Below are positions 1 to 60,700 of a stretch of 64,000 nucleotides of DNA, piece by piece. The notes beneath the pieces were generated by a model. The model was not told the DNA's origin, did not search any database, and saw nothing but the letters and a program-made list of their open reading frames with translations. How positions within the stretch are numbered: position 1 is the stretch's first letter; every line of letters starts with the position of its first letter. The translations under genes and the position numbers were made by a program. Source of the DNA: Amoebophrya sp. A120 (lineage: Eukaryota > Protista > Dinoflagellata); NCBI GenBank assembly GCA_905178155.1, contig CAJINV010000005.1, positions 6,435,207 through 6,499,206 of the forward strand. The letters run 5' to 3'.

Positions 1-3000
1 TGTGAGCTCTCCCTTGCTTTTCGCTTCTCTTCTTCCGCTAAAGATTGTGCTTCTCGAATCGTCTCTTGGATTCTCCGCTGTTCCAGTTCTTGGTCAAACT
101 GGGGGCCTCGGCCGATCACCAAATCGGACGAAGAGGAGGAGGAGACAACATCATCGGCGGTGTTTTCCTCATGCTCCCTCCATCCTCTGTTCTCATACAG
201 TTCCGGAGACAGAAACTCCATTTTCCCGATCATTTTCTCGACCCGCTTCCCAGCCGCTTCCATCTTCCGCTGCAAGTCCGTGTCGATCTGCGTTAAGACT
301 TTCGGGGATAAATGGTTTTTATCAATGAGGTTCTGAAGATCAAATTCGTTGAACTCCTGTTTTTCTGCTAGTTGTTTTTGGAGAGAAAATTCCTGTTCTT
401 CAATCGTCATTTCCCCGTAGTTGCGAAGAAACTCTGGGTTGTCGATTTCTATTCCGAAGTTTTCCGTTTCTAATTTTTCCAATTCTAATTTCAATTCGTA
501 TTCATCGTAATCTGTCACACCCCCTGGCTTCTGCTCGTCTAAGTAAAATCGCTTCAGTTGTTCTGCTTTTTGGAGTCTTTTTTCTTGGATCACGTTCTGG
601 AAGAAGTCTCTGCGGAGCTGTTTGTCGCGGGTGGGAAAGTCCCAGATGTTGGTATTTTCTTGGTCGGTTGTTGTTTGCGCCTCATTCTCATGGTCCAACA
701 TTTGTTTCAGACCATCGCCGTCGTCGTGTTTTCTTCGCGTTACTTGCGTCTGCTCCATCTCTGCCTTCAACCTCTCCAGCGCTTCCTTGATCCGGCCGGG
801 TGAAGCGATATCCAGCGGGTGGACGGATATGCGTTGCAAATCTGTCTGGGTCTGCAAACTTGTGATGCTGGTTGGCGAATCTTGACGACGCGCCAATTGA
901 TGGCCCAGCATGACAGGTTTCGGAGGTACTAGGTGTTGTAAATTCTGCATGCGAAACTGCGTTTTTGCATGACAGAAAAGTGAGGCTCCTTTTGGATGAC
1001 GTGCATGACAGTTTTGAGAATCATGCTACCCGAGCATCACAAGTCGCGCACTCTCCCGGACCCAGACATATTTGCGATGCATAACGGAAACCACAGATCG
1101 ACTGTCGTTACTGTTGGCGTCGTCCCAGTCCACAGAAGTTTCTTCGTCATAGAAACGCTTTTTCGATTTGAAGTTGTTTTTTATCGTATTGTTCAGCATC
1201 GGTATCTGCGACGCAATGGGGTGCTCGATCCGGTGGAGGGTTGTCGGGTGGAGAGGCTGTCGCTGTAGTTCTTGCTTATTGATACTTTCGTCCTGCTCGG
1301 TGGAATTTGTATTGCGATTTTTCATCCCAAGACCACTGTCGCTGTCGTGCTGGGACAGTTCGTCGTGAACAGATCCATCTTCACCGCCCTCGCCGGCGCC
1401 CAACTCCCGAAAGCTGGATACAACCACAGTTTCGACGAAACTCCTCGCCGCTTTCCGGCCTTCGAACCAATCCAACCGGTCTTGCAGTTCTTTTTGGATT
1501 TCCTCGTTTGCGATGCGGTCGCAGGACGCTTGGAGGACGGAGTGGACGTAGGAGTGGATGATGTGAGCCTGGAGTTGATGATGTTCCGCATGTTCTAGTA
1601 GTTGGTCCTTCTCACCATCTTGTTCATCTTCCGACGGTAAAAATGCTTCCACAATGTCGACTGCAGGAGCTGCACCAGATCCAGAACTACGAGCATGCGT
1701 CTTCATCTTCCCCTGACGTTCTTCAGACATCAACCTGGAAGACGCAGAGGCAGATGAACTCGCACTGTCACTGCTGCTAGAGCTGGAAAATATTGAACCA
1801 CCACCGCCACGCCTCCTCCGCGCAGCACGACTTGCTTTCTCCAAGTTCCGTCTTCCCAGTTCGCGGGCCAACTGGTCCTGGCTCGGCTGCACGATGTCCG
1901 AAGGACGGGCGGTCGGGGACAAGCCAAAAGTAGAAGCGGAAGCTTTTTGTAATGCTGCACCGGCTCTTCTTGCGGGAACACCGGTTCTCCTGTCATGCGC
2001 AATATCCACCCTGACAACCGGCGACTCCAGTCGGTCCTCCAGCTGTAACAGTTCGTCCTCGCCGTCGTAGTTCTTCTCCCTAGTACTGGAAAGATTCCTA
2101 TTCTCGCCATGAGGAAGATTCTTCTCATAATATCTCCCGCTGCTCCCCTGCAGCTCCAAATCGCCAGTCGCCTGGTACAGATTCCACTTCAAATTCTCCG
2201 CCCGCTCCGCCCAATATTTCCTCCACGACTTCAGTCGCTGCTTCATATCCTGTCGAAACTCTTTCGCCCGGTTTTTGAAGAAGTAGTCGTAGATAGTCTC
2301 GCGGAAAAATTTTCGGAAATTTTTGTCCAACTCTTTTCTCACTTCCCTCCCGTATTCTTTTTCGAACCCGAAGGGAGAATTGTCGAAAGAAGGACTGTCG
2401 TGAGTTGTTGTTTCCTCGTTATGTTCAAGGTCTCCGATGGCTTGTTGTTCTACTGTTCCTACTTCACTATCCGCTGTCTTGTTCCGGTTTTTTCCAACTA
2501 CCTTCCCGCTCTTCATTTTCGAACTACCGCCTGCTCTTTTCGTCCTGCAACAAAACCTAATCCTCGGTACACCCAAACAGCAGCAACACCAGCACCCGTA
2601 GCACATCCCGTAAAACACCCCCTTGGCTCGCGCGTCAACGACTCTGGTGTCGAAGTTTTTGTTTTCGACGAAGTACGGTCGCCAACAGAAGTGCTTCAAG
2701 CAGCAGTAGTCGAAACAGGTGGTCAAGTAGTACTCCTTCGGGCGCTTCTCGATCTCCTCCACGGTCCTGAGGATCTTCCGCATGTGCAGGAAGATTAAAC
2801 CGGAGAGTAAAAAGATGGCGAGGAGCGTCATCGGGACAATGACTTTCAAGAAGTGCCATTGGTTGTACCACAGGAATTGGTCACTGGTGTCTTCCGTGTT
2901 TCTCGTATCTAAGTTGTTGGGCGCCGGGTAGAAGTAGAGGGTGATGTTCCCGACTTTCACCTCTCTTCGGAGTATGTGGTTAGACTGCCAGGTAGTGGTG

Positions 3001-3044
3001 GTGGTGGTGGTAGTGGTGGTGTTGAGAGACAGAAGTGCGGACAT
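1..3044 (-). CDS. Hypothetical protein with N-terminal TM helix and Cys-rich patch; 1 non-canonical intron; 3' end runs off window
   Basis: ORF 1026..3044 continues in frame (SRSVVSV|HPLDIASPGRIKEALERL...) after removing 828-1083 plus one ACGGA copy. Confidence 0.8.
828..1083. mobile_element. Introner family A (TIR ~TATCAAATGCAAATATGTCTGGGTCTGGAA)
   Basis: TIRs; DR ACGGA/ACGGA. Confidence 0.9.
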
Positions 3045-6018: not shown

Positions 6019-7579
6019 TTACTTCTTCACCCGTTTGCTCGGTCGGATGGCATATCCACTGCAAACATGTCTGGGTCTGGAAAGATGCCACGAATTTGTG
6101 TTGCTGAGCCTTGCATGACGGAGCGATGCTTCGTACGACATGAACGCATCACAAATTTTTCGGTTGGTATTGCAAGTTCCACCGTGTTTTGCATGACAGA
6201 CAGGCTTCCAGCACGACAAAGACCGTGGTCAACATTCGTATTCATGCATTACAGATCTCGCTGTCTTTCAGAATTGTGCATCACAGATCCAGATCCACAC
6301 ATATTTGCGATGCATATGGGAAACGCGCAGTCATCTTCTCCGTCGTCCATGGTCGAGCTGCTCATGTAGAACATTTCATCCAGACCCGTGGAGGTTCCGC
6401 AATACAAATCGTCATTTCCCCCGTCGTACATGTCGAAATCGTCCGAGACCGAAACCTATGGATATGCAAAAGCATCGCACAAGTTGTATTGCAATACAAA
6501 TTTGCTGGTATAGAGAAAAACTGAGTTTGTCATGCAGGTTCAGGTCACAAACAAGATCTGTCATGCAAAAAATGCAAGTAGTGCGATACTTTTTGCAAAC
6601 GATAACCCCTCCTCATCATCTTCGTCCGACATCTCCTGCAACCCGAGCTGCGTCTGGTCCTCCGAGATTGGCGAAGTGGCGTTTTTGATCGCTAACTTTA
6701 TCGTGTCCTGGGGCTGCATCAACCCGGTCGTAGGATGCTGGGAAGTAGTACTCGGGATTTGGAACTCGTAGAACACGGTCGTTGTGGTGTCATTACTGTG
6801 TTTGCTGGAACAAGACGACTTCAACCCGGAAGATTCGAACCCGATGCCGCCACCGTTGGAGGAACAGGACGAGGACGACACGTTTCCGTCTTCCTCCGAC
6901 ATCGAGAAAACGTTGGTCGAGCACGTGCTGTCGAAATGGCCGTTGTTCATGAAAGTGCACAACTCGTCCCCCTCCCTCTCACTTGTCATGCAAAATTCCA
7001 AATCCACCCTTTGCCTGTTAGCACTGTTTGCGTGACAGATTCCGGAATGATCCAAAACAGCACTACAATCCTCTAGGAATTTGCCATGCTAACGCTGCAT
7101 CTTTGCCAGCGCTTGTGTTGCTGTTCATGCAACACAAATGAGGGGGAGGGGGAGTTGTGCACAACTCTCATATTGTTGTTCCCGTTCATGTTACTACCGC
7201 TCATCTTCGGCATCCAGAGCAAATCGTCTAATTTCTCCAGAATCACCTGCTCCGAAACGACGTGCTGGTACTCGTCTTTCAGCCAGTTGACGATCTCGGA
7301 GACCGTTGTGATGTTGCGCAATTCTTTGTTTGGTTGCAGGGCTTGCGGTGTTGTTGCAGAAGTAGTAGAAAACGCGTTGATACCAGTACTGGCAGAAGTA
7401 GCACCTCCGCTCATCTGCTGCTCGATGATTACGGTAAACGGCTTGAATTGCTTTTTTCCCCAAAGTTGGGGCTGCTTGTTCTGCTGCACCGGGACTGGCA
7501 TCATCACGTACATGCCTGAGGAAGAGGGAGGACCGCCGAGCATCGGCGCCTCACGCTTGTTACTCGACATGGAGAGCAT
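6019..7579 (-). CDS. Hypothetical low-complexity protein ending in basic NLS-like PSKRVKK; 3 introners
   Basis: Four ORF pieces join in frame under the element+5-bp rule (GNN|NGHFDS; EEG|SVSDDF; CAFP|IRPSKRVKK*). Confidence 0.75.
6053..6316. mobile_element. Introner family A
   Basis: TIRs; DR TGGCA/TGGGA. Confidence 0.85.
6457..6604. mobile_element. Introner family B (TIR ~TATGCANTGCAAAAGTATCGYACT)
   Basis: TIRs; degenerate DR AAACC/ACCCC; frame restored. Confidence 0.8.
6948..7172. mobile_element. Introner family C (TIR ~TATGACAGTGCACAACTCCCCCTCCCCCTCA)
   Basis: TIRs; DR TTGTT/TTGTT. Confidence 0.9.
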
Positions 7580-9099: not shown

Positions 9100-10665
9100 T
9101 TATCCTTCCACCGCAAAGTCGTTCATTCCGAGCCACGGGAATTCCGCGTGTGGCTTCTTCTCCTCCACCAAACTCTTTTTCAAGCAGTAGTTGAAACTCC
9201 CGTTCCCCAGCCTCGCATTCTCCCCGACGGGGGCGGAAAACTCCCGCACTTTTCCCCTTCCATCCCGCAAATACCAAATCCCGTCCTTCCCGGTAATTCC
9301 CCCGCATAAAGGCGTGTTCTATTCTGAGTAAAAACGTCCCCACCCTAGAGCTGTCATGCGGTTTTGCCTCTACAGGAATATTTGTAATCCGCATCCCTAT
9401 AAGATGAGGCATGTCTAGTCGACGTGTATAATTCGCATATATTTGTAATGCTGTAAACAGGATAAGCGGATGGGTTTCTGATGCGGCTGTCCTTCGACAA
9501 ACATGCACCACACTACGCACTGAAACTTGTCATGCGTGACTTCCAAAACTTGGAGATTTGTGTTGCAGATGTACCAATCGTTGACTATGGGGTGGGGACG
9601 TTTTATTTGCTCAGGATATGGTCGCGCACAGTTTCTCCGCGTTCGTCCTTTCAATAACCGCACAATCGGACTGCAGGTTGTTATGCATTGCAATTATGTC
9701 TGGGTCTGGAAACTTGTGTTGCTGAAGCTTGCATTGCAGAGTAGCCACATTTACGGCATAACAGCATCAGAAATTTTGCGAGGCTCATTGCATATTCATT
9801 CGTAAAACGCATCACAAATTGGCGTCCAGCACGACAAAAAAGCTGGCCCATCGCATTCATGCATTACAGATCCCTCTGCCCTTCCAAATTCGCATCACAA
9901 ATTCAGAGTCAGACATATTTGCAATGCATAGTTGTGGTTGTTCATGGATTTGCAGTTGTTTTGATCATAGTCCCACTTGAATTGTTTCACCGGACCGCGT
10001 TCCAGATACGCGTTCGCGAAGCACTTGAACAGGCTGGTGTGGTCAGTTGGTGGCGATAAAGGTGGGGAAGTGGCTAGTTCGTTGTCCTCCGGGTCGCCTT
10101 TCGGTGTATTTCCTCCTTCTTCTGGATTGTTCCCGCCCGTTTCTTCTACAGGTTCCTCCACCGGCTGCTCCGGTGGGGGTTCTAGTTCCGTATCCACCGC
10201 TTCCATCTCGGGCTCCCCCGGCCCGAGCTTCTCGTCCTGTCTCGCCTGGATTCCGTCGCACCGACTGCAGTTCGGGCGGGCTTCCGATTCTTTCCCGAGG
10301 CAGTGTTCCAGGCAATCTTCCTCCTGATTCGAGGAAGAGACGAAGACGTCCTTGATGTTCTTCAACAATGCTGCTGGGTTCAGTGCGGCGAAAGAAGTGG
10401 AAGATGAGGCAGTTTTTATGCCAGCTCGATCATGCCGGTGCAGCTTGGTGAAAAATGCAGTCTTTCTGTGGTTGGGCTTTAATACTATTTCCTCGTGGTA
10501 CCAGTCGCGTAGTGTAAGCCCGTGAAGATCCTCGTCGTGGTTAATTGCAGTGCTACTACTGTGGAAAACGTCACTCCAGGGGGACCCTGCTGCAGTTGAA
10601 CCGGATGGGAAAAAGGTCGGGAAAAACCTCGTGGCTAGGTGCTCGGAAATGTTGTTGGCCTTCAT
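9100..10665 (-). CDS. Hypothetical protein with acidic Pro/Glu linker and C-terminal Cys module (PAN/apple-like); 2 introners
   Basis: Spliced C-terminus: NNHN|LQSDCAVIERTNAEKLCAT|TPLCGGITGKDGIWYLRDGR...DFAVEG*. Confidence 0.7.
9320..9618. mobile_element. Introner family E (TIR ~TATCCTGAGTAAAAACGTCCCC)
   Basis: TIRs; DR TGTTC/TGGTC. Confidence 0.85.
9682..9930. mobile_element. Introner family A
   Basis: TIRs; DR GTTGT/GTTGT. Confidence 0.9.
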
Positions 10666-15321: not shown

Positions 15322-16499
15322 CTACCCCGCAAACGTTTCCCCATCAGTTTCTTTCCACAAATGGTCGCATTTCAGGCAGCGCAGAGTGATCACGGGTTCG
15401 TCGCTCTGATCCTCTTTCCGGTGCGTGCCAACGGTCGCGAGCATCAGAATCTCCTCGCTGTTGTTGCATTTCGGGCAGTTATGAGAGTGCGCAACCTCTC
15501 CTCCCCCTCATTTGTCATGCGAAATGCCAAATCCAGTCGCTTTCCTGTGGCACTGTTTGCATGACAAATTTCGAAAGCCCAAACAGTTCTACAGTTGGCA
15601 CTTAAATTTGTCATGCATAGGCTCAACGTGTGCTGGTGTTTGTATTGCTGTTCATGCAACACGCATGAGGGGGAAGGAAATTGCAATTGTGCATTCTCAT
15701 AGCAGTGGTAATAACTGTTTTTCGCAACTTTGGTCCATCTCGGATCGTCCCGCGGGTCAATCGCCATCGCTTCTTGTAGGACTTTCTCCTCCAGATTTGT
15801 TCGTTTCGCGGTCATTTCCTCGGATTCTAACTCTGCTTGTGAGAGGAAACAGAGATTATAGCAGCTCTGGACGTTGATTTTGTTAGTCGTTTTGTTGAAG
15901 CAGCTTTGGTTGGTTTTCTCCACTAATGTCTTGTTGCTGCGGAAGAACTGCACTAATCTCCGGTACTCGATCTGGTACTCACTGTACTCCTGTTTGGTCA
16001 GCATTTTGGACGAGTTCGGGGCAGAGGGGACTACTGGCTTATTTTTCTCCGTAAAAACCGCTTTGTCGCACAGCCCGCGCTCCACTTCCACCGCGATGGG
16101 CTTCAGTAGCCCTTTCGTGGTCAGGTTCTCAATCACCTTCTTCCTCCTCTCGTCCTGGGGGAGGTGGGTGGTTTGCTGCATGGGTTGATTTTGGGATGAC
16201 GTTGATGTGACTGCCTGTTTACTGTTGCCGCTGGTGCTGTTTGGCGCATTCGAAGCCGAGGTTTGGGTCGTTCTCCGCGGACTTCTTAAGCGCACAGGCT
16301 GAGCAGCGGACGATCCTGCAGGACCTCCTCCGGGGCCTTGAAGATTATTTCTCGATCCAGCTAGACCAGCACTGGTTGTACCGGCAGGACGGGCTGCTGC
16401 AGCCCGCTTGCTCTGCTGGTCCTGTGAAGTAGTGGTCGTCGGGTCCGCCATCTTCTTGGACATAGATGTGCTTTGGTCCGCAAGCACGGCCATTACCAT
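15322..16499 (-). CDS. Transcription elongation factor TFIIS-like (central domain + Zn ribbon); 1 introner
   Basis: After removal of 15480-15701: YYHC|PKCNN...DQSDEPVITLRCLKCDHLW = CxxC...DE P...CxxC ribbon. Confidence 0.85.
15480..15701. mobile_element. Introner family C
   Basis: TIRs; DR GCAGT/GCAGT. Confidence 0.92.
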
Positions 16500-33210: not shown

Positions 33211-33503
33211 GTCTCGGAGGATGCGTTACGTATCCAGGCAGAAAGACTGCGTCAGTGTGCTGTTGAAAGTGAATGCACTTGCACATGCAGCACATGTTGC
33301 ACGACAAAACAGTAATAAAAATGGAAATACCAGATTAAAGTACGTTTGTCATCCTGCCTTCAGGGAGGAACCTTTACGGCCTCCTCGCATGTTGAAAGAG
33401 TGACTTCGAATTGCACCAACTAGCGGCACAGGAGAACTTTTTTCTCTTATCCAGGGTACACTTGTGTTGATACTGTGCGTCCACCCAGGAGGTGGACGAG
33501 CAA

Positions 33504-44693: not shown

Positions 44694-45021
44694 TATCAAA
44701 GTGAAAAAAGCCCCCACCCCATATTCAAAAGACAATTTGCGTTGCTGGATTTGCGTTGCTGGATTTGTGTACACAAATGAGCTCTGTATTGCAGCAAGAG
44801 CATGTCGGCATATTTCCTCAGCCCATTTGGGTACGCATCCGGCTAGCAGCTGAGCATGAGAAACAAGTCTGCCATATGCGAAAACGCATGACAGACTCGC
44901 TGTACAATGCGCCACATGGGTGCCGTTTGCCTTGTACGCAAGACAAAGCTGATTTGCGGTCACAAATCAGCATTACAAATTCTCGTTTCGATATGGGGAA
45001 GGGAGACTTTTCCTCTCAGTA
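44694..45021. mobile_element. Introner family D with degenerate DR, apparently downstream of a stop codon
   Basis: Family D TIRs and interior; flanks CGCTA/CTGCT. Confidence 0.8.
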
Positions 45022-45063
45022 CTGCTGCTCACCACACGAAATGCTCTCGTCGTGCGTCCCTGA

Positions 45064-45438
45064 TTACGAATTTGAGCCCTTATCGCCCGGAGGATTCGCC
45101 TCAGCCGCGCTCTTCGCTGCCGACGTCCCCTCACTCGTCGTGGAGTTTTTGTGTTTTGTGCCGCCGCTCGGACTAGCACTTCTTCCAGCGCCGTTCGTGG
45201 TGGTTTGCGAAAGAACTCTGTTGCTCGAAAGAAAACTTCTACCGAAGGAGTTTGTGGCGGAGCTTCCGGCTTGCCCAGCTTGCAGCTGATATGCCTGGTC
45301 TAGTACTTCTGCGTCTGCCGCCGTCCCTTTAGTACTAGGTGGCAGAGCGTCTTCCAGGCTGCTTCTGCTCGCGCTCAGGTTCGAGTCGCCCTCGTTGTGA
45401 AAGCTGCCGATCTCAGCCAATCTTATGCGAGAAAACAA
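45064..45438 (-). CDS. Short Ser/Thr/Ala-rich ORF without ATG; possible gene fragment or terminal exon
   Basis: 124-aa ORF whose composition resembles neighbouring proteins. Confidence 0.35.
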   Translation of the reverse strand: MFSRIRLAEIGSFHNEGDSNLSASRSSLEDALPPSTKGTAADAEVLDQAYQLQAGQAGSSATNSFGRSFLSSNRVLSQTTTNGAGRSASPSGGTKHKNSTTSEGTSAAKSAAEANPPGDKGSNS

Positions 45439-45647
45439 GGAGATAAACTGCGTTTACTGCGTGTATTGTTTGGTCTTCTTTTGGACGAGGATTTCTATTC
45501 TAGGATTCTTGTTAGTGCGAAAAACTACGTAGACACGTCCATAGTCAGTCGTCTGATGTGACACATGGAGTATTTTTTACAGTTAGCTGTGCAAATCTTT
45601 ATTCGCATCACACATTTCATGTTCGACGTCCATTCAAGAACTACATA

Positions 45648-48600
45648 TTACACAGTTTCCATTTTTCTCGCTTGGATAAACGTTCCCGAAAAATCGTTGA
45701 CGGAATGAAATACGTGGTCCCGGCTCTTCAGCTGTCGTGGCCGCGTATGCAATGCAAAAGCATCGTACTCGTAGTCATTCCGATTATGCATTGCAAATCT
45801 TTTTCCGAAGGTCAATCAGCATTACAAACTCCATTTCTCATGCTAGCTGAGGGCGAAATCATTTGTAATGCAATTCACACTACTAGTACGATGCTTTTGC
45901 AATGCATACCCCGCGGATTGCGACAATTGCGATTTCCACTGTGCGGGCCCACTATTCGGTCCTCCCCCACTGGCGCTGTTCTCCCCTTGGCCGGTTTTCC
46001 GCAGGTCCTGTGGGTCGGACGTGGCGAGGGCGTGGAACAGCCCCGTGGCGGTCCCAGCGCTGGTCTCCGATTTCCTTCGTTGGGGCGTGGAGAGATTAAA
46101 CTTCTCGGCGTCAAGTTGTGCTCCGGTCAGCATCTGTCCATTATCTTTCGCCCCGCCGTAGTTCTTCCGTCCGCGACCACCGTCTAGGGAAAGCGTCTTG
46201 GCGAGCGAGGACAGGGTATCCCAGAGAAAAAAGCTAGCAGGGCATGTTTGTAATGCAAAAACACATACACAGAAAAATTTGTCATGCGCGGCCCCATAGC
46301 ATGCTGTTCAGGATATGCAGCACAGATCTTCCTGTGTATTCATTTTTGCATTTCAAATATGACCTGCCTGCTTTTTTCTGTGTGATACAGGGATCCCTGC
46401 AAGTCGCTGTGCTCCGCGCCACGTCCTCCCGTGCCCGACGTCGAACTGTGGTCTCCCGCTCCTCCCACGCTCGTCCCACTTCCCCCCTGGTGTAGGTTTT
46501 GTGCCGGCGGCGCGCCGCCGTCCTGGGCGCTCGCGAGCGAGCTGCTGGCGGTCTCCTCCCGCAATTTCAGCATTTTCGCGCCCGCAGAACTGGTGGGCGC
46601 CAGCAAGGCTTCGTCCTCTTCTTCCAGACTGGAGGATTGGCCCGTGACAGAGTTTATGCACTGCAAAAGTACTATCGCACTTGTTGTACTAATTACATTT
46701 ATGCATTACAAATCTTTTTCTTAAGGTAAATCTGCATTACAAATTTAATTTGTGATGCTGGGCTGATTTGTGATGCAATTTATACTAGTACGATGCTTTT
46801 GCATTGCATAGAGTTCTTCCGCAGCGCGTTTTGCCGCACGTGCGTATCGCGCAGGTTCGGGCCCCCGTTCTGTTGCTGCTCTACCATCTCTTTCTGGATC
46901 GCCTCCTTCTGCTCTACCTCCGCCTGAATACGCGTTATCAAAATGAAAAATCCCCACTCCCCATGTCAATAAAACGGAAATCTGTGATGCGGGATTTGCG
47001 TACACAAATCAGATCTGTCTTGCAGTAGAGCACTGCACGCAGATGCTAAGCCTGAGCAGGGGTCTTCTGGTGTAGGCACTTGGCACGGCAGACGTCTGCC
47101 CCGTAGGCCTTACAGTATTACAAATCGCCTCTATAACGCGGCGGACTCTCCGGATTTGCATTCTTGCAAGACAGACAGGATCTGTGGCCACAAATCTGCA
47201 TCACAAATTTTCAGAAGGCTGCGTTCTTAATATGGGGAGGGAAGATCTTCCGCTTGAATACGCGTTTCCAGATATTTGTTCTCTAGCACCGTGGTCCGAA
47301 ATGTTTTTTGCACTTTGCTGATCTCGCTCATCTGGTTCTCCACGAGCGACTGGAAGTTTTGCTTCATCGATTCCAAATTTTCACACGCGAGCAGCAATTC
47401 CTTGCGTTGCTTTTCCGCCTCGTCCTCTAACAGAACGGTTGACTCCGTTTGAATGCCGATCGATTGGAACTCCTTCTTGAACACCGCAGCGGCCTCTTGC
47501 TCTTCCCGCTTCTTCCTCTCCTCGGGCGTTTCCTTGTCCTTGTTCAAAAACTTCTCCCGGTTGTAGTTCGTGATGTAGCGAATTCGTGGTAGATAGCGGT
47601 TGATGATCCGTAAATCCTCGAGAAACAAATTCACCCGCTTGATGTGACTGTTCAACCGCTTGACCTCCTTTTCCCGCACGGAGAAAGGACTGAAGCCGCC
47701 GGCTTTACTTTGCCCGCCCCGACTGTTATGCAACAAGCCAGCAGGATCGGCACCCGCGGAAAATCTTCGGTGGTCGGTACCTTGCTTGTCGTTCAGTCGA
47801 AGCTGATGCCTCTGCGCGAGCGACGGCTGCTCGTACTCCAAGCGGCCGGTGCTCGCTAAACTTGGATCGTCGTAGAAGTCGTCGAGCAGTGGGTGGCTAC
47901 CTTTCAGCGACGACACAGCCCCTCCCAACGCTGCGCTGCCCGCGGCTCCGGAGGAGGAACTACTCCCGGTGGTGGAGGAACTCCCGCCGATCCCGGCCCC
48001 GGAAGGAGAGTTGTTGGTGTTGGTCCCCATGTTGCTTTTCGACACGGTGGATAGCACCAGTTTCTCTACCGCCTGCCACTGTGGCACGGAAATTTTCTCG
48101 AACTCGTTTACCACGTTCCAGGTGACGAGATACAGTGCGTGCGGGGAGATGCTCCGGCACTTCACGCACGCGTGTAACGCCGCCTCGATGTAGTCCTCAA
48201 AAAAACACAACTTGAACTGGAAGGACTGATTCTGTTTGCTGTCCGAAATCTGCAGCGAGGAAGAGTTATGCAGCAGCGACGCCGCATTCCCACTCGCGAC
48301 CGCACCAGCACTGAAGCTAGTCGTCGGATATAACCCTTTGTGGTGATGCCCCGCCCCTCCTCCCGCCCCGAAAGCGTGATGCAGGTGCAGCTGCTTTTGG
48401 TGGTAAGCCGTCGAAAGGGCGTTGTACCCCTGGGCGGCACTTTGGACGTAGCCATACGTGCGGTCCAGGTTTTGTACCACGTGAATGTACACGCACTCTA
48501 TCACCTCGGGACACTCGTCGAGCTGAGAGATTTTGTTGTTTCAGACTTGTTTAATCAAACCTGTGATGCATAGAATGTACCACAGAAGTGTTTGTCTTGC

Positions 48601-51600
48601 CGTTTATGTTCCCTATAGGAAATGCACGCATGGCAAGTTTCGCCTATTTCTTTTGACATGTGTAACGCGATCGCGAACTTGTGATGCAGAACCTACTATA
48701 CAGATCTCTATCTTCGTTTCAGAGCCCATGCGCATAGGAATCAAAGTTGTTCTCATCGCTGCACCCCAGCCGCTGCAAAAAATCGCAGCAACTGGCGTGA
48801 GGACAAACTTGTGATGCATAGAATGAATCACAGAAGTGTTTGTCTTGCTAGTACACATGCTAGACACTGGATATCTTCTAGTAGTTGCGAACTTGTGATG
48901 CAAAACGTACTATACAAATCTCTATTGTTTCAGAGCCCATGCGCGTAGGAATCAAAGTTGTTCTCATCGCTACACCCCAGCCGCCGCAAGAAATCGCAGC
49001 AACTGGCGTCAGGACTCAAACCTTTTACTAAATCTTCGGGTCATCATGCGATAATCTTGTTTACACTGTTGTCTGCTCTAGTGTGTCAACTTCTCAAGAG
49101 GATCTTCTTCATGTATCAGCATGTGTACAGTACATGCTTGTTTTTCCTGATCGACATGAATTTTCGGGCGGAACTACCGCGGGCTGGATCTCTATTCTTT
49201 CAAAACGGCATCATATTAAAGTAAGATCTCACTCGAATACCTTCATCGACAAAAAGATGAAAATACAACGCCTGCTCTAAAGACCAAAACTCCTATACCA
49301 TTTTCGTGGCCGTGTAGTAGTCCGCTTGGCCATTGTCGCCGATAAAGATGTATGCATTGCCAAGATGTCTGGGTCGGGAAACTTGTGTTGCTGATACTTG
49401 CATTGCAAACTTGCTGCTTGTACGGCATAGCAGCACGACAAATTATCCTCGGCTTATTTTTGCGGTTCAAGTTTATTCGTGTTTAGCATGACAAGCTGAC
49501 TTCCAGCACGACAAAAAAAATTGTCAATCGTATTCATGCATCACAGACCTTGTTGTCCTTGAGGTCTTGCAATACAAATCCAGACCCAGACATATTTGCA
49601 ATGCATAAGATGAATTTGAATTCCGGGTAGAGCGATTGGTATTCGACAAAGTTCGCAAACTTTTTGTCCCCCAGTGGCCCGTAATCCCCGCTCATGATGA
49701 ACTGCGTCGCTGTCACGATCCCGCCGGGCAGCAGCGCCGGCATGCAGTGCAACCCGTTTTCCATCCGCATCATTTTGGAAAACGAGGAAAACAGCCCCGA
49801 CTCCACGTAGTCCGAGACAATGTGCGGCCGAGCGGAAAAGCCCACCAAATGGCCGAAATTCCCGCCGCAGTCCAGGTTTTCGGTCTGCTTTATCGTGAGG
49901 AAGAATCCCCCCTCCCCATATCAAAGTGGCAATCTGTGTTGCGGGATTTGTGTACACAAATCAGCTTTGTCTTGCAGTATAGAAGTGCAGGCAGATAAAA
50001 AGCCTGGAAGGGGCTGGCTAGAGGTGGGCGCTCAGCATGGCAGACGTCTGCCCTGTTGGTGCAGCAGCATTACAAATCGCCTGCGTAAAGCGGCGAAAGC
50101 TCTGGCTTTGCTCTCTTGCAAGACAGACCTGATTAGTGACCACAAATCAGCATCACAAATTTTCAAAAGGATGCCTTTTCAATATGGGGAGGGGGATTTT
50201 TCCTTTCAATATGCTTCCGTAATTGCTCCGTCGTGCTGTCGTTCTCGTTTTGGTCGCTTTCTGATTCCTCTTCCGAGGAACTCAAGCCGCTGAGCTCCGA
50301 ATCTGACAGCTCGCTGTCGTGGTCGTTTTCCGACGAAAACAGTTCGTCATCCGCCATCGCGTGCTTATCCGATACGGGGCTGCTAGGGGGGGAAATCGGG
50401 ATGTTATCGTCGACAAGAACGGCAGCTGGTGTGCCACTGTCCGGAAGATGAGGACCTAGAAGATGGCCTTCTTGTTGCTCCAAAACTGCTGTTGCGACCG
50501 ACGCAGCACTACTGGCGCTACTGTCTGTTTCCTTCTGCGATAATGAAGATCCTGGCTCTACTGCTTGCGCATTTATTCCGCCCTGTGGCGTTTCCCCTGG
50601 TCGTGTGGTTTTCATCGACACAGGACCGTCTTGCACACCGCTCTCGCCTGCGGAAGACTCTGCGGAGGTCAGGAAGGCAGTGGACTCTGGTGGAAGACTC
50701 TGCTCTCCACCCGCTGACGAGGTCGTGGGTGCCGCCGAAAACATCTCGGTCGGCGGAATGGATTTCAGCTCGTCGTTGTTATCAGACGTAGACTCTTTCG
50801 CGGACAAAAGCGGCTCGTTCTCCGAGGAAAGGTCGACTGCCCCTTGATGTGCGGCCACCCCGGTAGTGGGGTCTTGGTCTGCCAAGGTAGAAGTCGCGCC
50901 TGCTAACAGAGCGGTTGACTTCGTGGGCGAAGATGCGCCGCTCAATATTCCTGCTTCTCGTGTGTTCCCTGCGACTGCTACCGGCTGGTTCAGTTCCTGC
51001 TGGCCGCCTGGTGTTGCAGGTCCGGCAGCTCCCGAAGAAAACGTACTTTCTTGATGTCCATTCTGTGTAGATTGGTTTCCTACGATACTCGGCTCGCCAG
51101 CACCAGAACCGGTCAGATATATATTTGCCGCGGTCAGTGGCTCGCCCACTGCGGCAGTTACTTTCTCAAAACTAGACACTGCCGACGTTGTTGTGAGATT
51201 CAAGTGTGAGCCATCGGACGAAACGCCGGTGTTGATACTGCTACTGGACTATGGATTGCAAATATGTCTGGGTCTGGAAGACGAAGATTCTGAGACTTGT
51301 CATGCACGTTTTGCATGAGCCATGAGGTCTCTGACAATGCGAGACCTAGCATGACAGATTCTTTGAGGTCACTATCATGCCTTTCCTGCATGAGAAACTC
51401 CCTCTGAATTTGGTCAAAAGTGGACAGCCTTTGGTTCTCACGCAACACAAATTTTTACACCATTCAGATTTAGCATGACAAGTCTTGATCTTCCAGACCC
51501 AGACATTTTTACATTTGATATGGACGCGGATGAGACCACGCCGGTGGTGTTGGCAGCCGTCGAGGGTATCATGAGAAAAAAGTGTTACAGTTACACATTT

Positions 51601-54600
51601 GTTGGAGTTTCTGCATCACAAATTTTCTCTGTATAGCAGAGAAAACTTGTAATGCGAAGATCATAAGGGAAAACAGGAAGGAAACGAGGCCCCCAAGCAT
51701 TTCCTGCATGAGAGAGGTTGTCTGTGTTGCCGGTCTTGCATAGACTATGTGTGTAACTGTAACACTTTTTTCTTGCGATAGAGGGGGCGTTGTCCTTACT
51801 GCTATCCTGCTGCTGGCTGCTGCTCTTCTTCAAGTCTGTGATCTGGGTACTATTAACCGCAGTGCCCCCAGCACTCGGCGCTTTATTTCCTTGTTGTAGC
51901 TGTTTGCTCTGAGCACCGGGCAGCTTCGTAACGCCGCCCTTACCCGCCAGTGGCGACCCGCTGCTATTGGAAGAAAAAAACGAGCTGGTAAACTGGGGGT
52001 AATTTTCCCGCCACTTCGAGGTCAGCATGGGTGTGCAGCGGTTGGCCAGGGCCGAGGGACACCGCATCCACCATTTGTCCACCCGGTACTGCTCCACTTC
52101 GGGCGCATCGTAGTGCTCCAGAACGCGGTAAAACGTGGTAACCCCGGGGTAAATCTGTTTCCGCGGGTACCTCTTGTCCACGCCCGCGATGTGGTTGCCG
52201 CCGGAACAGTAGAGCGTATCGTCGATATCGGTCAAGATCTTCAGCCACTGGTGTCTGGCAGAGAGCCCCTGAAAGGTCGGGGACATGTTCAGAAACCCGG
52301 CCAGGTCCAGGTCGGCGCCCAGGTAGTGCTGCGCATCCTCGCCGATGGAAGAGAGAGAGGGGGGTTGGGAAATGAGGGTGCTGTTGTTCGCGGCAGTTGT
52401 TGGCGGTGCTCCAGGTAGTTGTAAACCTCCCGGGTGGCCTTGCATACCACCAGTAGACGAATTGTTCATCATCGGTGGGTTTAACCCGCCTGCGAGCTTT
52501 CTTTTCAGAACACTATCGGTGGAAGAAGATGGTGGTCCCACATTTGTTCCTGTTGCGCTGATAGTGTTGTTCCCGATAGAGGTAGTGGTCCCAATTGTGC
52601 CACTCCCGATTTGGTCGTGCGGCTCCGAGGTGCTACCCGACGTAATGTCGTTGTGTTTCGAGGTTCCGGACGCGTTGTGAATTGTCGACGTTGTGCTCGC
52701 ATCGCTATCCGGTTCCCGATCGTGCAAAAAGGAAGTTGGCCCGCCGGGGGCACCGCCAAGCTGCACCTGCTGGTGGTAGCCAAACTTCATCTTGTTCATG
52801 CCCAGAGTTGTTGTGCTGTTTGGATGTTGGTGGTGGAAGGGGGAACGAAGCTTGTGATTCCCCACAGAGCCAATATAACTTGCTCAGGTGTTACAATCTC
52901 AAGCGTTGCAATAGAATATGGAAATCTGTGATGCAGGAAGTGCATGATCACCGTAGTCCCAGCATCGGTTTGCGCATGACAAGTTGCGGCACCCAGAACC
53001 CCATAAATATCCGGCGAAATTTGTATTGCGAAAGGCGCAACTCTACACACGTTCCTCATGCTCTTCATGTAAGACAAAATCCAGACTCTATTGTAACGTT
53101 TGAGATTGTAACGGTTCAGCAGGTCATAGCCAAAAGCCGGACCATTTTGCTGGTCTGAGGACAGAATCCCGTCCTCCGATGGCGTTCGGGATCTCGTCGG
53201 GGTCTGCATCCGGAAATTAGAGGCACCTCCAGCAGTAGAAGACACTATACCCCCCCGGTTCAGCATGGATTGCGGATTCGTCATTAGCGTGGATTTATCA
53301 AATGCAAAAATGTCTGTGTCTGGAAGAATGCAAGTTTGTCATGCTTGTCTGGCATGACTCGAGAATCTGTTATGTTGCAGAGGCACGAAAAGGCCCTCTT
53401 ACCTGTCACGCAAAGACGCAGTTTGCCATGCGGAATACGTAAGACATGCCAGCCAAAAAATTTGTTATGCATAGCTGCGTAATATTGCAGTACGTCTATC
53501 ATTCACTTTTAGCATTACAAGTTTCCAGACCCAGACATATTTGCATTTGATACGATTGGAATTGCGGTGAAAATTCCTGCAAAGCGTGGTTTGAACTCTC
53601 CTTTTTGTTCAGTAAATACCTCAAATGGAGATCCCGGCCGATCAAGCGGGTGTAAACCTGCAACGTGGCTTATGACAGTGCACAACTCCTCCCTCCCCCT
53701 CATTTGTCATGCAAAAACCCAAATCCAGTTGCTACCTTGTGGCACCGCGTGCATGACAAATTCCGGAAATCCAAACAGTGCTACAGTTGGCGCATGAACT
53801 TGTCGTGCACAGGGTCCACCTGCACTGGTGTTTGTAATGCTGTTGATACCATGCAAATGAGAGGGAGGGGGAGTTGTGCACTGTCATATCGCCTGCTGAA
53901 GTATGTGCTTCTGGACTTGATTCCGTTTCCCGTAGCTCAAGTCGGAAAAAACCAGTTTCCAAAACCCGTGTACCGAGCCTTTGGAATCGGTCATGGATTT
54001 CAAATTCGTCAAGTCGTCTCCCAGTGTGTTCAACACAATCCGGGTGACCGCCTCCTCGGCTTCGGGCGAGCAGGAAAATTTCAAAACCTGCAGTGCGTTG
54101 ATGATGAGAACTCTCGATCTGACCGTCAGTTCGTCGACCGCGTCGAAGCAGAGAAATTTTATCAGCTGCGTCCTGGACCCACCGGTGTTGCTGCCCCTAG
54201 AAGTAGATCCACTCATGGCCGTCTGGTGTTTCTGCCCGAAACTCCCGCTGACCACACTGCTATGTCCAGGATGATGATGAACCCCGACGATGCTTGGCAC
54301 GACGGAATACCGCTTGTTGTTGTTTTCCTTCGCAGTATAGAACCAGGAGAAAATGTTGAAAAAGCTAGGAACAGAGAAGTTCATGCTGGTATCGTCGTGC
54401 AACCGGTCCAACAGAATTATCAAATGCAAATATGTCTGGGTCTGGGAGAGTGTAAACTTGGCATGCAGATTTTTCATGGCCCATGAGGTCTGAAGTGCGG
54501 GACTTAGCATGACAGACTCTGCGAGGTCTCTGCCATGCCTATCCTGCATGAGAAACTCCTCCCCAACTTGGTCGAAAGTGGACAGCTTTTGGCACTCATG

Positions 54601-56442
54601 CAACACAGATTTTTACATGCTTCAGATTTACCATGACAAGTTACCACCTTCCAGACCGAGACATTTTCGCATTTGATAAAAATCTCCAAGTCGCAATTTT
54701 GCACCAAGGCGTTGAAGGTATCCCCCTTTCCCAGTAGCAATTTCTCGTGTTCGTCCACAAAAATCTGCCGGATCTTGTTTTCCTGCTCGCGCTTCTTGTC
54801 CTTTCGGGAAGAGGGGAGAAACGGCGCGATCAGCTTATCAGATAGAAAGAACGACGCGAAGTAGCTCACCTTGCTACTTTTGAAATAGTCCCGCTCGGTC
54901 AATAACCGTTGGATTTCCGCGGTGAGATTTTTCACTTCCTGCGACGGCGTCGCGAGCCGGGTCGACCGGATCGACTGCGCGTGTTTTAACAGGCTGCTTT
55001 CCCGCATGATCGAGGCATAGGAGAAAACGATGATAGGGATCAGGAGCAGCATGAACAGGACAATCGCCGGATGATTCAGCATGGAATCCGAATTAATCGG
55101 CGAGTCCGGCGGCACGAAGAAGGTTACCTGGATTATCCACAATGATGTTCACAATCACAACACTGACTACGCGTGTATCAAAGAGTTTTGGTAGTTTCTT
55201 CCGTTGGGAATGACATGAATGTTCGCTCTATTGCATGACAGAATCAACCTTCAACTGATCATCATGATGTTTCTACTTCAATACTCATACATAGATACCA
55301 GTATTATGTATGCACTGCAAAAGTATCGCACTCGTAGTATTGCAATACAAATTAGCTCAGCATGACAAATGGAATTTGTCATGCTGATATAGCTTGAAAA
55401 AGAAATTTGTAATGCATAACTGCAACTCGTACGAGTACGATACTTTTGCAGTGCATATCATGACGCCGAGTGCAATCTGCGGTCCCTCGTCCAGTGTCGA
55501 CCGAAAGTCCTTCATGGACAGCAACGCCCGTCTTAGAAACCGCAAGAAATGCCGCCGCTTTTTGTTCCGGGAGTCTTCCATCTGCCGCGCTACAATCGCG
55601 ATCGTGGTCTCCTCGGCGAACAGGTAAATTAACCCCATGAGCAACGTCGCGAGTAAGAAACTGGTGAAGAGCGTCATGTAGATAAACCCGAGCGTGATGA
55701 AGATCGAAATGCTCGCGAAGAAACAGAACACGAAAACCCGCACCGCCGACAACGCCCTCGCGGTCCCGTGGTGCTGCCACTTCTGGATGTTCTCCACAGA
55801 ACTCTGCCAGGCCGCCGTGGCGGCGTTGCGGGAGAAGGACGAGGAGGAGGAGGAGTTTTTAGCTGATGATGTTCCCTGATCACTTGTCGTCGACTTCGCC
55901 GAAGCGTGAGACCCTGTGCTCTCCAAAGAATCGCGGATATTGGCATTCTTATTGCCCCCGGTCTTCTTCTTTTTCGACGTTGAGGATTTATTGTTTGCGC
56001 TCTTGCCTGTCGTGGTAGTACGACTTGTAGTTCCCCCGACCGCGCCATCGTGATCGGCGGTTTTAGAAGTGCTCGCCGCGGCGCTATGGTCCTTTGTAGC
56101 TGTTCCTGTTCCAACACCTCCCAGTCCCGCATTCTTGTCCCGGTAGTTGTTCCTCTCCTTATTACTCGACCTGATCCCTGTCCTCTCCTTCGTGGCAGAT
56201 GCAGCGAGCCGCGTCTTCTTCGGGACTAGACCTCCATCCATAATATGCTCGCCGACTGTCCCAGTTGCACCACCTGCTTCGTTGCTCATGCCGGAGCTTC
56301 TAGTTCCACTTGGGTCCGACTGCCGTCGGGTCCGCATATTCACGACCGGCATGGTCATCCCGATACCACCAGGATCGGGACCTCCCGGGCCTCCTCCTGC
56401 GCCCCGGTTGGACGAGGACATTTGTTCAGCAGAAAAGACCAC
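45648..56442 (-). CDS. App1-like (HAD superfamily) phosphatidate phosphatase domain protein with N-terminal TM helices, ~2,250 aa; 13 introners + 2 GT-AG introns
   Basis: Motifs LTDIDDT, FSARP, KFANFVEYQSLYPEFKFI|FIGDNGQAD, VYIH; 10,795 - 4,030 = 6,765 bp = 2,255 codons. Confidence 0.8.
45746..45908. mobile_element. Introner family B
   Basis: TIRs; DR CCGCG/CCCCG. Confidence 0.9.
46217..46387. mobile_element. Introner family F
   Basis: TIRs; DR CAGGG/CAGGG. Confidence 0.9.
46655..46810. mobile_element. Introner family B
   Basis: TIRs; DR GAGTT/GAGTT. Confidence 0.9.
46936..47260. mobile_element. Introner family D
   Basis: TIRs; DR CGCGT/CGCGT, extendable to 18 bp. Confidence 0.9.
48523..49298 (-). 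other. Canonical GT-AG intron (776 bp) containing a ~250-bp tandem duplication
   Basis: ATG|GTATAG...TCTCTCAG|CTC gives GDNGQADYYTATKM|LDECPEVIECVYIH. Confidence 0.75.
49351..49607. mobile_element. Introner family A
   Basis: TIRs; DR AGATG/AGATG; similar to 9682-9930. Confidence 0.92.
49891..50211. mobile_element. Introner family D
   Basis: TIRs; DR TGCTT/TGCTT. Confidence 0.92.
51250..51520. mobile_element. Introner family A
   Basis: TIRs; DR TGGAC/TGGAC. Confidence 0.92.
51567..51780. mobile_element. Introner family G
   Basis: TIRs; DR GAGGG/GAGGG. Confidence 0.92.
52874..53128. mobile_element. Introner family L (long ~45-bp TIR)
   Basis: TIRs; DR GCCAA/GCCAA. Confidence 0.9.
53296..53552. 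mobile_element. Introner family A, inverted near-copy of 22396-22646
   Basis: TIRs; DR GGATT/CGATT. Confidence 0.92.
53671..53888. mobile_element. Introner family C
   Basis: TIRs; DR TGGCT/TCGCC; frame restored. Confidence 0.88.
54418..54678. mobile_element. Introner family A
   Basis: TIRs; DR AGAAT/AAAAT. Confidence 0.9.
55128..55298 (-). other. Probable canonical GT-AG intron (171 bp)
   Basis: CTG|GTATCT...ATCCAG|GTA joins GVMIL|VTFFVPP in frame. Confidence 0.6.
55309..55457. mobile_element. Introner family B
   Basis: TIRs; DR TTATG/TCATG. Confidence 0.9.
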
Positions 56443-57742: not shown

Positions 57743-60700
57743 CTAACTCCTCTTTCCCTGTGGCGACTGCACGGCGAAGAGCCCGCTGCTCTTACTCGTC
57801 CCGTTTCCGCTCGTACTCGCCAAAGCAGAACCTCCGCCAGCTTGCTGCTCTTTCAGCAACAGATTCTTGTTTTTCTTGCGGGTTTTCCGCTCGCGGCTGG
57901 GGAGCGGTATCACAAAGTCAGAAAGTGGTGTCTGGCTGTCTTGTATTATATACTGCATGACAACTTTCCTCAGCATGAGAAATGGAATTTGCAATGCCGA
58001 TTTACCTCGAGAAAGAAATTTGTAGTGCATGACTCCGATTACACCCTTTTTTCTCTTGATACGCTCCACGAAGTCTTGGTCCATATTCGACTGCAGGAAA
58101 TCCATCATCTGATGTAGTTTTGATGTTTTTTTCACATTCGCATTCATTTCCGCATGACAGAGTGCGGTGAGTATGCCTCCCACGCATGACAAAATCCCAC
58201 AAAACGCGACAACTTCGTCTTCGTCATTGCTCATGAACGATGCGCATGACAAACAGCATCGCGCGCAATAGTTTTGAGCCATTTCGGGCCGCCGACCGGT
58301 GAGCAGACAGGAGTCGGTGGCCTGGCTCTGCTGCGGGCGCACGGGCGAACCGCGTACCAACGGCAGCAGACCAAGGCTGCCAAGCCTGCGCTGCACCTGA
58401 CTTCTCAAGGCAACGCCCGGTCTACTATACGAAAACATCGACCGCCCTAGGTCGCCAGAATAGGGGTCGCTAAAAACACAAATTCGGGCAAATCCCAGAA
58501 GCAACAACTTCTGTACTACCCAAGGTCGACATGCATGAGCCTTTGACTACCTAAGTAACCCGTAGGCGAAATAGTTTTTAGCCGTTTCGGGCCCCCGGCC
58601 GGCCAGGAGGGATGGGAGTCGCCGTGGAACAGCGCCTTCACATTCATTCCCGCATGACAAAGTGCCGTGAGTATGCCTCTCACGCATGACAAAATCCCCG
58701 TCTTCGTCATTGCTCATGCACGATGCGCATGACAAACAAAACCCACGCCAATAGTTTTTAGCCGTTTCGGGCCCCCGGCCGGCCAGGAGGGATGGGAGTC
58801 GCCATGGAACAGCGCCTGCGACGCGAGCACTGCTTGCGCCCCGGCCTAAGATAAAGATCAGCGCGAATCCCGGGTAGCCAGAATAGGGCTCGCTAAACAC
58901 TGCATTCGGGGAAAAATGTTGGAACCATGTCCGACCACAACACAACTTTGTCATGCAACTACACACTGAAAAAACATGTTATTTTCATCATGACTAGCCA
59001 AAAATGAAAAATCCTGATTTTAATACGTCTTGCTCGTTTCGGATGTGCGATTGGGGCTGCTGCGCCGCTACGGCAGGTGTCCTCATTGTTGGATTCTGCA
59101 TTATATTCTGTTCCGCCAGACCTCCGCCTTGGACGGCTGCGAACCTGTTCTCCGTGGCCCTCGAAGTAGTTCCAGTAGTTGCACTATCTCCTGCAGGTCG
59201 TGGTGGTCCACCTCCACGCTGCGCGGCAAATTGTTCTTCGGTATTGCTGCTATTATCGCCATAATTTGCATTCCCATCTTCAAACGAAGACGACAGCGTC
59301 GCCGGATCCTGATCGGTCTCCACCCCGACCAGATCTCCCTCCATTTCTCCGAAGGTAGTGTTACTGTGACCACCGGGAAACAGCTCGATAAATCCGTTGT
59401 CGTTCATAACCGCTGGGTATGACAGTGCACTACAACTCCCCCTCGCCCTCATTTGTAATGCAAGATCCGAAATCCAGTTGCTGCCTTGTAGCACTCTTTG
59501 CATGACAAATTCTGGAAGCCCAAACAGTATTACAGTCGGAGCGTGATTTTGTCATGCTCAGTCTGCACGTATCTTGGTGTTTGTATTGCTGTTCATGACA
59601 AACAAATGAGGGGAGGGGGAGTTGTGCAATCTCGTACTGGGAACACATTACTCTCCCCGGTGAAGTTGTCCTCCTCCCCCGGTCCGACTCCGATCACTTC
59701 CGACTCCAATAAATTCGCGCTTGCATTAATCGCCTCGTGCCGTTCGTCCTGCGACCGAACCGAGATCGCTGTGCCGGCCCGGCTGGTGGAGAAGGGAATG
59801 TTGGAAAACAATCCGTTGTAACTCCCATTCACATAATTCGAGTTTGTCCAATTGGAATACTGTGTGGACGAAGGGCTGTTGCTCGACGTCCACATCCGGG
59901 CCTGTTTCCGTTATCCTGGGTAAAAACGTACCCACGACACCGTAGCTGTCATGCAAATCTGCATGCTCAGAATGTTTCTCATGCGGAGCCGCATGAGGAG
60001 CGTTTTCTAGTCGTTTTTCGGAATTTGTTATGCTTCGGCCAGGATCAATAAGCTAGGGCTGTGACGCTGCTGAACTAGCTTAACAGGACTACACCACGAA
60101 GCCAAACTTGTCATGCGCAACAGCCAAAGCTTGCTGATTTGTCTTGCAGATTTCCCAACCTGACTATGGTTGCAGTGGGGACGTTTTTACATATGATATC
60201 CGTTTCCAAATGTTCTGCTCCGACTCCGACATCAAGTCTGGGTTCACCTGCTTCACCGGACTCTGCCGCTCTTGTAGCTGTATCGCGGAAATCTGCACCA
60301 GGGATTTCTTCTTTTTCTTTTTCGGCGACTGGTTGTGCTGTTCCTGCAGTTGTATGAATTGCAAAAGTATCGCAGTAGTAGTAAAATTGCATTACAAATT
60401 TTACCTCAGCATGATGACAAATGGAATTTGTCATGCTGTTTTACCTTGGGATGGAGATTTGTAATGCATATATTGCAATTATTACAAGTACGATACTTTT
60501 GGTGCACTGGATAAGTTGCAGCTTCTGCAGCGCGTTCAACGCCTGTTGCTCCGTGATCGGGACGCTGTTCGGGTCGTTGTACGCGTGGCTCGAATTCGTG
60601 TTTGTCGTTCTCGGCGAGTACCGATGATCCCTGGTGTTTTGATTTTGTTCCTGCTGTCTCTGCAACGTCGTTATCCCCGCCTGTTGCACGATCGGCGGGA

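Follow-up and report, generated by a model that had tools for sequence, protein, structure and literature searches.

The introners of the dinoflagellate Amoebophrya sp. A120 carry a short motif, GCANNACAR, repeated on a regular lattice inside families with different ends and unalignable interiors, and we predict, as the probable reading, that a single transposase lineage mobilises all of these families and binds the motif through its DNA-binding domain. The motif was analysed in a window of 64,000 nucleotides (nt), the whole stretch from positions 6,435,207 to 6,499,206 of contig CAJINV010000005.1 (assembly GCA_905178155.1, forward strand), where an original prediction, made from the letters alone, had proposed one trans-acting factor that binds the motif and marks DNA for mobilisation or removal.

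A search for inverted ends with flanking duplications yielded 52 curated elements, which measure 138-325 bp apart from two that nested inserts have made longer; four (44694, 45424, 55133 and 57908) were added later to give 56 in the window. GCANNACAR matches the window 271 times on both strands, and 209 of these matches fall within the 14,538 bp of the 52 curated elements (14.4 per kb), compared with 8.4 ± 2.9 (maximum 18) in 200 dinucleotide shuffles of the same sequences; the site count of each of the 14 window groups lies above the maximum of the group's own shuffles. The shared motif is thus confirmed as real, repeated inside the element families as first proposed and enriched against a composition-matched background. 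All five positions originally cited for it hold a match (20470 and 20502 on the minus strand; 20519, 20612 and 20643 on the plus strand), at spacings of 32, 17, 93 and 31 bp. The other 49,462 bp contain about 61-62 matches (1.25 per kb) versus 16 in dinucleotide shuffles of non-element DNA, and much of this excess lies in initially missed elements and in decayed arrays (48.5-49.0 and 58.1-59.0 kb). Exons backed by an RNA-type contig hold four sites in 7,703 bp where 2.6 are expected, which is background level and agrees with the earlier impression that the motif is rare in exons.

Scanning for the end pattern of family F1 identified 155 loci (584 kb including overlaps) in metagenome contigs, all from assembly JACKZZ01, and no match in viral contigs. 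From these loci 368 elements were obtained with a finder that required TA[TC] ends, four of five duplication matches and an end score, F1 being over-sampled; the duplication was perfect in 303 and carried one mismatch in 65. These elements belong to the families of the window, at up to 97% identity, and the source of JACKZZ01 may, judging by sequence, be the same species as the window DNA and so no independent replicate. Clustering produced 23 clusters of at least three elements (elements longer than 400 bp, and 22 that fell into smaller clusters, were set aside), each with a consensus carrying two to seven sites, longer families carrying more. With 30 nt trimmed per end, interior local scores were 39-316 within families and 19-36 between them, the latter within a few points of a site-preserving shuffle null, with some pairs reaching a z of 3-6. 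End-to-end alignment of the families, named at the outset as the sign of simple common descent, was looked for: the interiors of different end-types do not align, and therefore shared interior descent does not explain the motif, while common ancestry of the element ends is likely. Orientation relative to the host gene was balanced in the largest cluster (12 versus 14) and skewed in clusters C1 (11 versus 2) and C4 (1 versus 5).

The site itself is contiguous and degenerate. Spacer dinucleotides among the 209 sites were TG (n = 78), TC (n = 39), TT (n = 29), AT (n = 20), AC (n = 17), AG (n = 9) and CG (n = 7). In the family clusters T or A occupies position 4 in 96% of cases, and A occurs at position 5 in 2%, where G, C or T is usual; position 7 is C, sometimes G, and positions 9-12 are biased. 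This constraint on the spacer and downstream bases argues against the bipartite, methyltransferase-type site with a free spacer that had been suggested, and the motif is refined to GCA-W-B-A-S-A-R, often directly followed by AT. Mismatch to the family consensus, taken over 94 consensus sites in 18 clusters, was 3.9, 2.1, 4.2, 7.8, 24.9, 9.5, 13.4, 5.0 and 12.1% for positions 1-9, compared with 22% for other interior bases of the same families; GCA was 96% identical within sites and 84% identical for GCA/TGC outside them. The pattern of tolerance is alike in every family.

Adjacent sites in the consensus sequences are regularly spaced, with 67 of 94 spacings in 15-18, 30-34 or 46-50 bp, bins picked after the window data had been inspected, compared with a mean of 22.7 and a maximum of 37 in 5000 random placements; restricted to one cluster per end-type, 45 of 58 spacings fall in these bins (null mean 14.3, maximum 26). 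A free period scan of the site-to-site distances peaked near 16 bp with an amplitude of 0.56, and a 10.5-bp period was unsupported (amplitude 0.13). Neighbours facing the same direction are mostly 30-34 bp apart (about 32; exceptions at 18 and 48-54), and opposed neighbours mostly 15-18 or 46-50 bp apart (about 16 or 48; exceptions at 33-34). Site direction thus follows lattice position, contrary to the orientation-free layout first described, and the loose range of 15-40 bp given at first is replaced by the three clusters of spacings. Of 113 cases, 20 have a weak opposed site 16 bp upstream (-16) of the exact site, versus a median of 2%; weak same-direction sites peak at -31 to -33, and the weak sites occupy empty lattice slots. 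Measured from the element end, the outermost outward-facing sites fall at 31-36, 40-46 or 55 bp, distances about one turn apart, and sites are distributed through the interior, not only close to the ends.

A lattice of this kind might also be a neutral relic, inherited by all families from a single ancestor whose interior arose as a 16/32-bp unit was duplicated and inverted. The TAT start and 5-bp duplication common to nearly all families, which probably denote one transposon lineage, would accord with such an ancestor, as would the weak sites filling vacant lattice slots, and old descent is compatible with the failed alignment. We nonetheless hold this to be very unlikely, because core bases are 5-10 times better conserved than adjacent interior bases, with the same variable position in each family, and because interior homology across end-types exceeds the motif-preserving null by no more than a few score points.

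Each element runs from TAT to ATA, between the two copies of a 5-bp target duplication. TAT stands at the ends of all 23 cluster consensus sequences, a result partly ascertained by the finder's requirement for TA[TC], and most end-types have an A-run at end positions 11-13, which is absent or shifted in F3, F9, F10 and cluster C11. The terminal inverted repeats (TIRs) of the families, described at first as unrelated, do differ between end-types; they are not wholly unrelated, since nearly all start with TAT and most share the A-run. Within a family, end positions 4-10 are variable, and a single copy often has different bases there at its left and right ends; positions 11-13 are nearly fixed. 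With TAT-type inverted ends, a direct repeat (5 bp) at the borders and removal from mRNA without GT-AG ends, the elements are, by these sequence features, A120-type introners that have already been published; Farhat et al. 2021 gave their ends as TAT, seven variable bases and three As, with direct repeats (3-5 nt) at the borders and non-GT-AG boundaries likewise described (PMC7789003, PMC12130899). The features are as follows, with their basis in brackets: ends (TIR and 5-bp duplication), sites (motif matches) or joint (junction in an RNA-type contig); strand is given for the one canonical intron.

828..1083, F1b element (ends, sites)
6053..6316, F1c element (ends, sites)
6457..6604, F2 element, decayed (ends, sites)
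6948..7172, F3 element (ends, sites)
9320..9618, F4 element, sites all in one direction (ends, sites)
9682..9930, F1c element (ends, sites)
15480..15701, F3 element (ends, sites)
20122..20382, F1a element, missing from RNA-type contig (ends, sites, joint)
20429..20690, F1a element holding the five originally cited sites, missing from RNA-type contig (ends, sites, joint)
22396..22646, F1b element, removed as 251+5 nt (ends, joint)
23802..24066, F1a element, removed as 265+5 nt (ends, joint)
24808..25122, F10 element, removed as 315+5 nt (ends, joint)
25518..25775, F1b element, removed as 258+5 nt (ends, joint)
28702..28953, F1a element (ends, sites)
29618..29791, F6 element (ends, sites)
31007..31261, F1a element (ends, sites)
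31423..31703, F4 element (ends, sites)
33545..33774, F11 element (ends, sites)
33816..33966, F2 element (ends, sites)
34066..34328, F1a element, reverse orientation (ends)
34378..34694, F8 element (ends, sites)
34842..36207, F8 element with nested 1049-bp foreign insert (about 35069-36117, no exact site) (ends)
36295..36563, F1a element (ends, sites)
36935..37091, F2 element (ends, sites)
38777..39003, F7b element (ends, sites)
39135..39400, F1a element (ends, sites)
39450..39712, F1a element (ends, sites)
39765..40786, F1a element with nested 750-bp foreign insert (about 39971-40724, no refined-motif match) (ends)
40856..41073, F7 element (ends, sites)
41153..41439, F1a element, removed as 287+5 nt (joint)
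41501..41775, F1b element, precise removal, 12 nt from next element (joint)
41788..42108, F5 element, orientation opposite to other F5 copies, precise removal (joint)
42166..42456, F4 element, intact sites antisense on transcript, removed as 291+5 nt (sites, joint)
42514..42807, F9 element, precise removal (joint)
42824..42961, F2 element, precise removal (joint)
43030..43290, F1b element, removed as 261+5 nt (joint)
44694..45021, F5 element, removed as 328+5 nt (joint)
45424..45678, decayed element with a single, mismatched site and none that is exact, removed as 255+5 nt (joint)
45746..45908, F2 element, removed as 163+5 nt (joint)
46217..46387, F6 element, removed as 171+5 nt (joint)
46655..46810, F2 element, removed as 156+5 nt (joint)
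46936..47260, F5 element, removed as 325+5 nt (joint)
48523..49298, minus strand, canonical GT-AG intron of 776 nt with decayed, tandemly duplicated motif array (6 exact sites) (joint)
49351..49607, F1c element, removed as 257+5 nt (joint)
49891..50211, F5 element, removed as 321+5 nt (joint)
51250..51520, F1a element, removed as 271+5 nt (joint)
51567..51780, F7 element, removal (contig coordinates)
52874..53128, F9 element, removal (summed contig coordinates)
53296..53552, F1b element, reverse orientation, removal (summed contig coordinates)
53671..53888, F3 element, removal (summed contig coordinates)
54418..54678, F1a element, removal (summed contig coordinates)
55133..55296, strongly decayed element, uncertain ends, missing from RNA-type contigs (joint)
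55309..55457, F2 element, orientation opposite to 45746 and 46655, removed (joint)
57908..58061, F2 element, decayed (family comparison)
58100..58990, duplicated motif array, 7 exact sites, sites 32 bp apart, no recognisable paired ends
59418..59636, F3 element (ends, sites)
59912..60198, F4 element (ends, sites)
60353..60513, F2 element (ends, sites)

Paired ends for the 58.1-59.0 kb array were looked for and none were found; its part from 58264 to 58927 is without RNA-type cover. Foreign inserts within elements, in the window (35069-36117 and 39971-40724) and at the loci (L021:505-1608, L029:632-1465, L033:6314-6770 and L059:571-1051), contain no site, one misaligned case being left out. Their insertion points are mostly at CAT/ATG, within a site or next to one, and two inserts end in ATC/TGA-type repeats suggestive of retroelements; the insert at 35069-36117 has its own degenerate inverted ends, a repeated short motif and an approximately 7-bp duplication, and is a different element type. 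On the minus strand of the window, open reading frames (ORFs) include a G-patch_2 domain protein at 3652-5586 and, at 17798-20242, a C2-domain exon of a 2,658-codon gene.

Removal of the elements was traced in RNA-type contigs, which come from three runs of one sample (X1-X3) and whose RNA nature was guessed, and in DNA-type contigs of a fourth run (X4). All 29 bridged elements, of the 56 in the window, are missing from the RNA-type contigs, 28 of them as exactly the element plus 5 nt; the remaining elements have no contig cover or lie outside the joints listed. The gene at 17.7-27.4 kb has six elements, and one contig of 8,366 nt, with zero mismatches, lacks them all together with 5 nt apiece; the listed joints remove another 16 exactly, including two pairs only 12 and 16 nt apart. 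Contig coordinates account exactly for five further elements (one singly, four by sum), and one joint takes out 55133, whose ends are uncertain, together with 55309. The spacers at 41776-41787 (12 nt) and 42808-42823 (16 nt) are kept in the RNA-type contigs, so that adjacent elements each seem to be removed independently. Families F1b, F2 and F5 are removed in both orientations, and after joining, minus-strand frames are open over 2658 codons (815 unjoined), about 2364 codons and 141 of 141 codons. The GT-AG intron at 48523-49298 is also absent from the same contigs, which supports their being RNA. Two raw RNA runs (X8 and X9) gave cover of element-like sequence only and no joints. An F6-type copy at another locus, related to window 29615-29726, is found beside one and the same foreign flank in X1 and in about 400 raw RNA reads of X9, and is thus retained in an abundant RNA.

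These contigs bear on the proposal that the motif, as a methyltransferase or excision-factor mark, directs the cutting of elements from DNA in the manner of ciliate internal eliminated sequences. Precise removal is what such cutting would give, the RNA nature of X1-X3 is a guess, and the joints listed for X4 number just 15 of more than 1,400. Against this, the GT-AG intron is missing from X1-X3 too, and their coverage of genes is uneven; contigs of X4 continue into the elements, with no precise excision among the 15 joints listed; the motif spacer is constrained; and RNA-seq backs such introns in Farhat et al. (PMC7789003). We regard DNA excision as extremely improbable, and the exact removal of 45424, which has no intact site, likewise speaks against the removal mark of the original prediction.

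The cut register could be read from ten window elements with mismatched duplications and displayed junctions (20117, 25513, 44688, 55456 and six others), all of which fit exactly one base from the left copy; four cases are informative, two elements needing at least one left-copy base and two permitting at most one. On minus-strand transcripts the intron would consist of the element with 1 nt added ahead of TAT and 4 nt added behind ATA. We infer that splicing would depend on the paired ends.

Whether the motif is itself a splicing signal, read in RNA as sequence or paired stems, or through a DNA-bound factor that recruits a non-GT-AG machinery, can be judged from the same material. It is present in every family, all 29 bridged elements are missing from the RNA-type contigs, just two of the 374 clustered elements are without an exact site, and U1 small nuclear RNA was not found in these genomes according to the text available of PMC7789003. 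Such a role is nonetheless decidedly unlikely, since 45424 without an exact site is removed exactly, and 42166, whose intact sites are antisense to the transcript, is still removed. Among locus elements with a callable host strand, 17 of 119 are without a sense site and 12 of 119 without an antisense site (not RNA-checked; 249 uncallable). Arrays of the F4-type consensus face one way and cannot pair. Nor does position 5 covary as pairing would demand: agreement in two 16-17-bp dyads was 34% versus 22% expected and 33% versus 31%, the overall excess (434 versus 375 of 1083) reflects mainly subfamily structure in the largest cluster, some same-direction pairs there agree as strongly as pairable ones, and its outermost pair reads G/G in 43, G/C in 42 and G/T in 11. 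Finally, the core decays after insertion. Core mismatch was 5.1% in 53 elements with a mutated duplication, on average the older ones, versus 3.6% in the 278 whose duplication is perfect (permutation within families, p = 0.002), and core mismatch is comparable in size to the duplication divergence of 3.5% per site. We infer that a core is all but intact when the element inserts and drifts afterwards. End positions 11-13 showed no significant rise with age (2.6% in older versus 2.0% in younger elements, p = 0.39), a result that gives no firm ground for host selection acting there. Taken together, this points to an internal motif that serves mobility and to paired ends, with one fixed cut register, that serve splicing.

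The lattice would allow a DNA-binding protein to load cooperatively, the transposase being the likeliest candidate. Protein subunits would load cooperatively on alternating head-to-head and tail-to-tail sites, the 32-bp step corresponding to roughly three helical turns, and the loaded protein would bring two TAT ends together, the element being inserted with a 5-bp stagger. Possession of the site array would be the condition on which families persist despite unlike end repeats and unrelated interiors, and selection would act on jumping copies, not on landed ones. The single trans-acting, double-stranded-DNA-binding factor proposed originally is supported by the unalignable interiors, the uniform tolerance and the helical-step spacing, with mobilisation its likely function and the removal mark set aside. 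As a more tentative extension, one transposase lineage may recognise its passengers mainly by the portable internal lattice, which at least 14 end-types share, with the paired ends alone forming a splicing ruler (1 nt before and 4 nt after the hairpin); if true, mobility and splicing would be two separable codes in a eukaryote with mostly non-GT-AG introns.

Several observations weigh against a transposase. Searches for transposase families drew a blank in 24 window ORFs and in 101 locus ORFs, which comprised one chosen ORF and the 100 longest among 160 unspliced ORFs of at least 220 amino acids, and these 125 ORFs, sampled from about 0.6 Mb, contained no BED finger, hAT catalytic domain or integrase-like DDE transposase. 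No long coding element was present among five longer end pairs and nine unpaired ends, and in A120 Farhat et al. likewise detected no transposase and spoke against mobilisation by one (PMC7789003). Neither the offset nor the direction of the outermost site is constant with respect to the element end, the site facing inward in several end-types, whereas Hermes phasing is rigid; the spacing bins were post hoc; only two of the 374 clustered elements are without an exact site; and motif-free removal is seen in the single element 45424. A host DNA-binding protein needed for jumping would also yield the same patterns. Of the sequences inspected, L021:505-1608 was rejected as a coding master element, being an element with a foreign insert and a 238-amino-acid ORF without Pfam match. 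L018:591-2090 holds an ORF with a C-5 cytosine DNA methylase domain, and L072:5425-5477 an orphan F5-type end, a short stub of about 50 bp, inside a long open reading frame.

Such a host protein, chromatin-associated or architectural, might have been co-opted by the elements, bending or coating them for end pairing or shielding them from silencing. It would produce the same lattice, the same tolerance in all families and the same decay after insertion; sites throughout the interior at variable offsets to the ends, and sampled ORFs free of transposases, would suit it as well. A host factor should, however, have host sites, and exons lie at background (4 versus 2.6), with much of the excess outside curated elements falling in element relics; we therefore rate it as rather unlikely and retain a transposase as the probable binder.

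For the class of this candidate transposase, a hAT-like enzyme is slightly favoured over an integrase-like one of the IS3EU/Ginger type. To our knowledge, hAT miniature inverted-repeat transposable elements (MITEs) are generally not spliced as introns. The hAT5 group makes 5-bp duplications where typical hAT elements make 8 bp (PMC12730594), and the introners have both the 5-bp duplication and short repeats in both orientations inside both ends. IS3EU/GingerRoot elements resemble the introners in their TA...TA termini and differ in a duplication of usually 6 bp, compared with 5 bp here and joints that remove the element plus 5 nt (PMC10045372, PMC6839031); their integrase-like ORF was not found among the sampled ORFs. 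Gozashti et al. 2025 annotated A120 family 38 as '5-bp TSD, TA/TA termini' (TSD, target-site duplication) and reported integrase-like ORFs in it (PMC12130899).

The elements, and the principle of transposase-bound subterminal repeats in MITEs, are already known. Element lengths of about 150, 210, 255, 280 and 310-320 bp match A120 families among the 38 of 58 rows listed in PMC12130899. Farhat et al. left open the mover and the splicing of Amoebophrya introners, and they detected no family-specific end motif in A120 (PMC7789003). The published texts give ends and direct repeats; an internal motif, lattice or fixed splice register was not found in the literature searched, including the text seen of PMC7789003, PMC12130899 and PMC11453091. 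The motif evidence separates the question of introner mobility from that of splicing, and a shared site with tolerant and intolerant positions and a spacing rule provides both a pull-down bait and a ready mutant set. Among known systems, the proteins of Lemi1 bind subterminal motifs of the Emigrant MITE, and the proteins mobilising it bind cooperatively to repeated subterminal motifs and end repeats (PMC1636448); Emigrant is pogo-like and a single family, whereas here an internal site is common to many families with divergent ends. The subterminal repeats of hAT elements (Hermes, Ac and Tol2) are likewise short, lie in both orientations inside the ends and form palindromic pairs, and Hermes BED domains bind them cooperatively in a phasing-sensitive manner (PMC10368747). 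The repeats of Hermes are 4 bp and irregular, in contrast to the sites of 9-11 bp described here, which are set on a regular 16/32-bp lattice and shared by at least 14 end-types.

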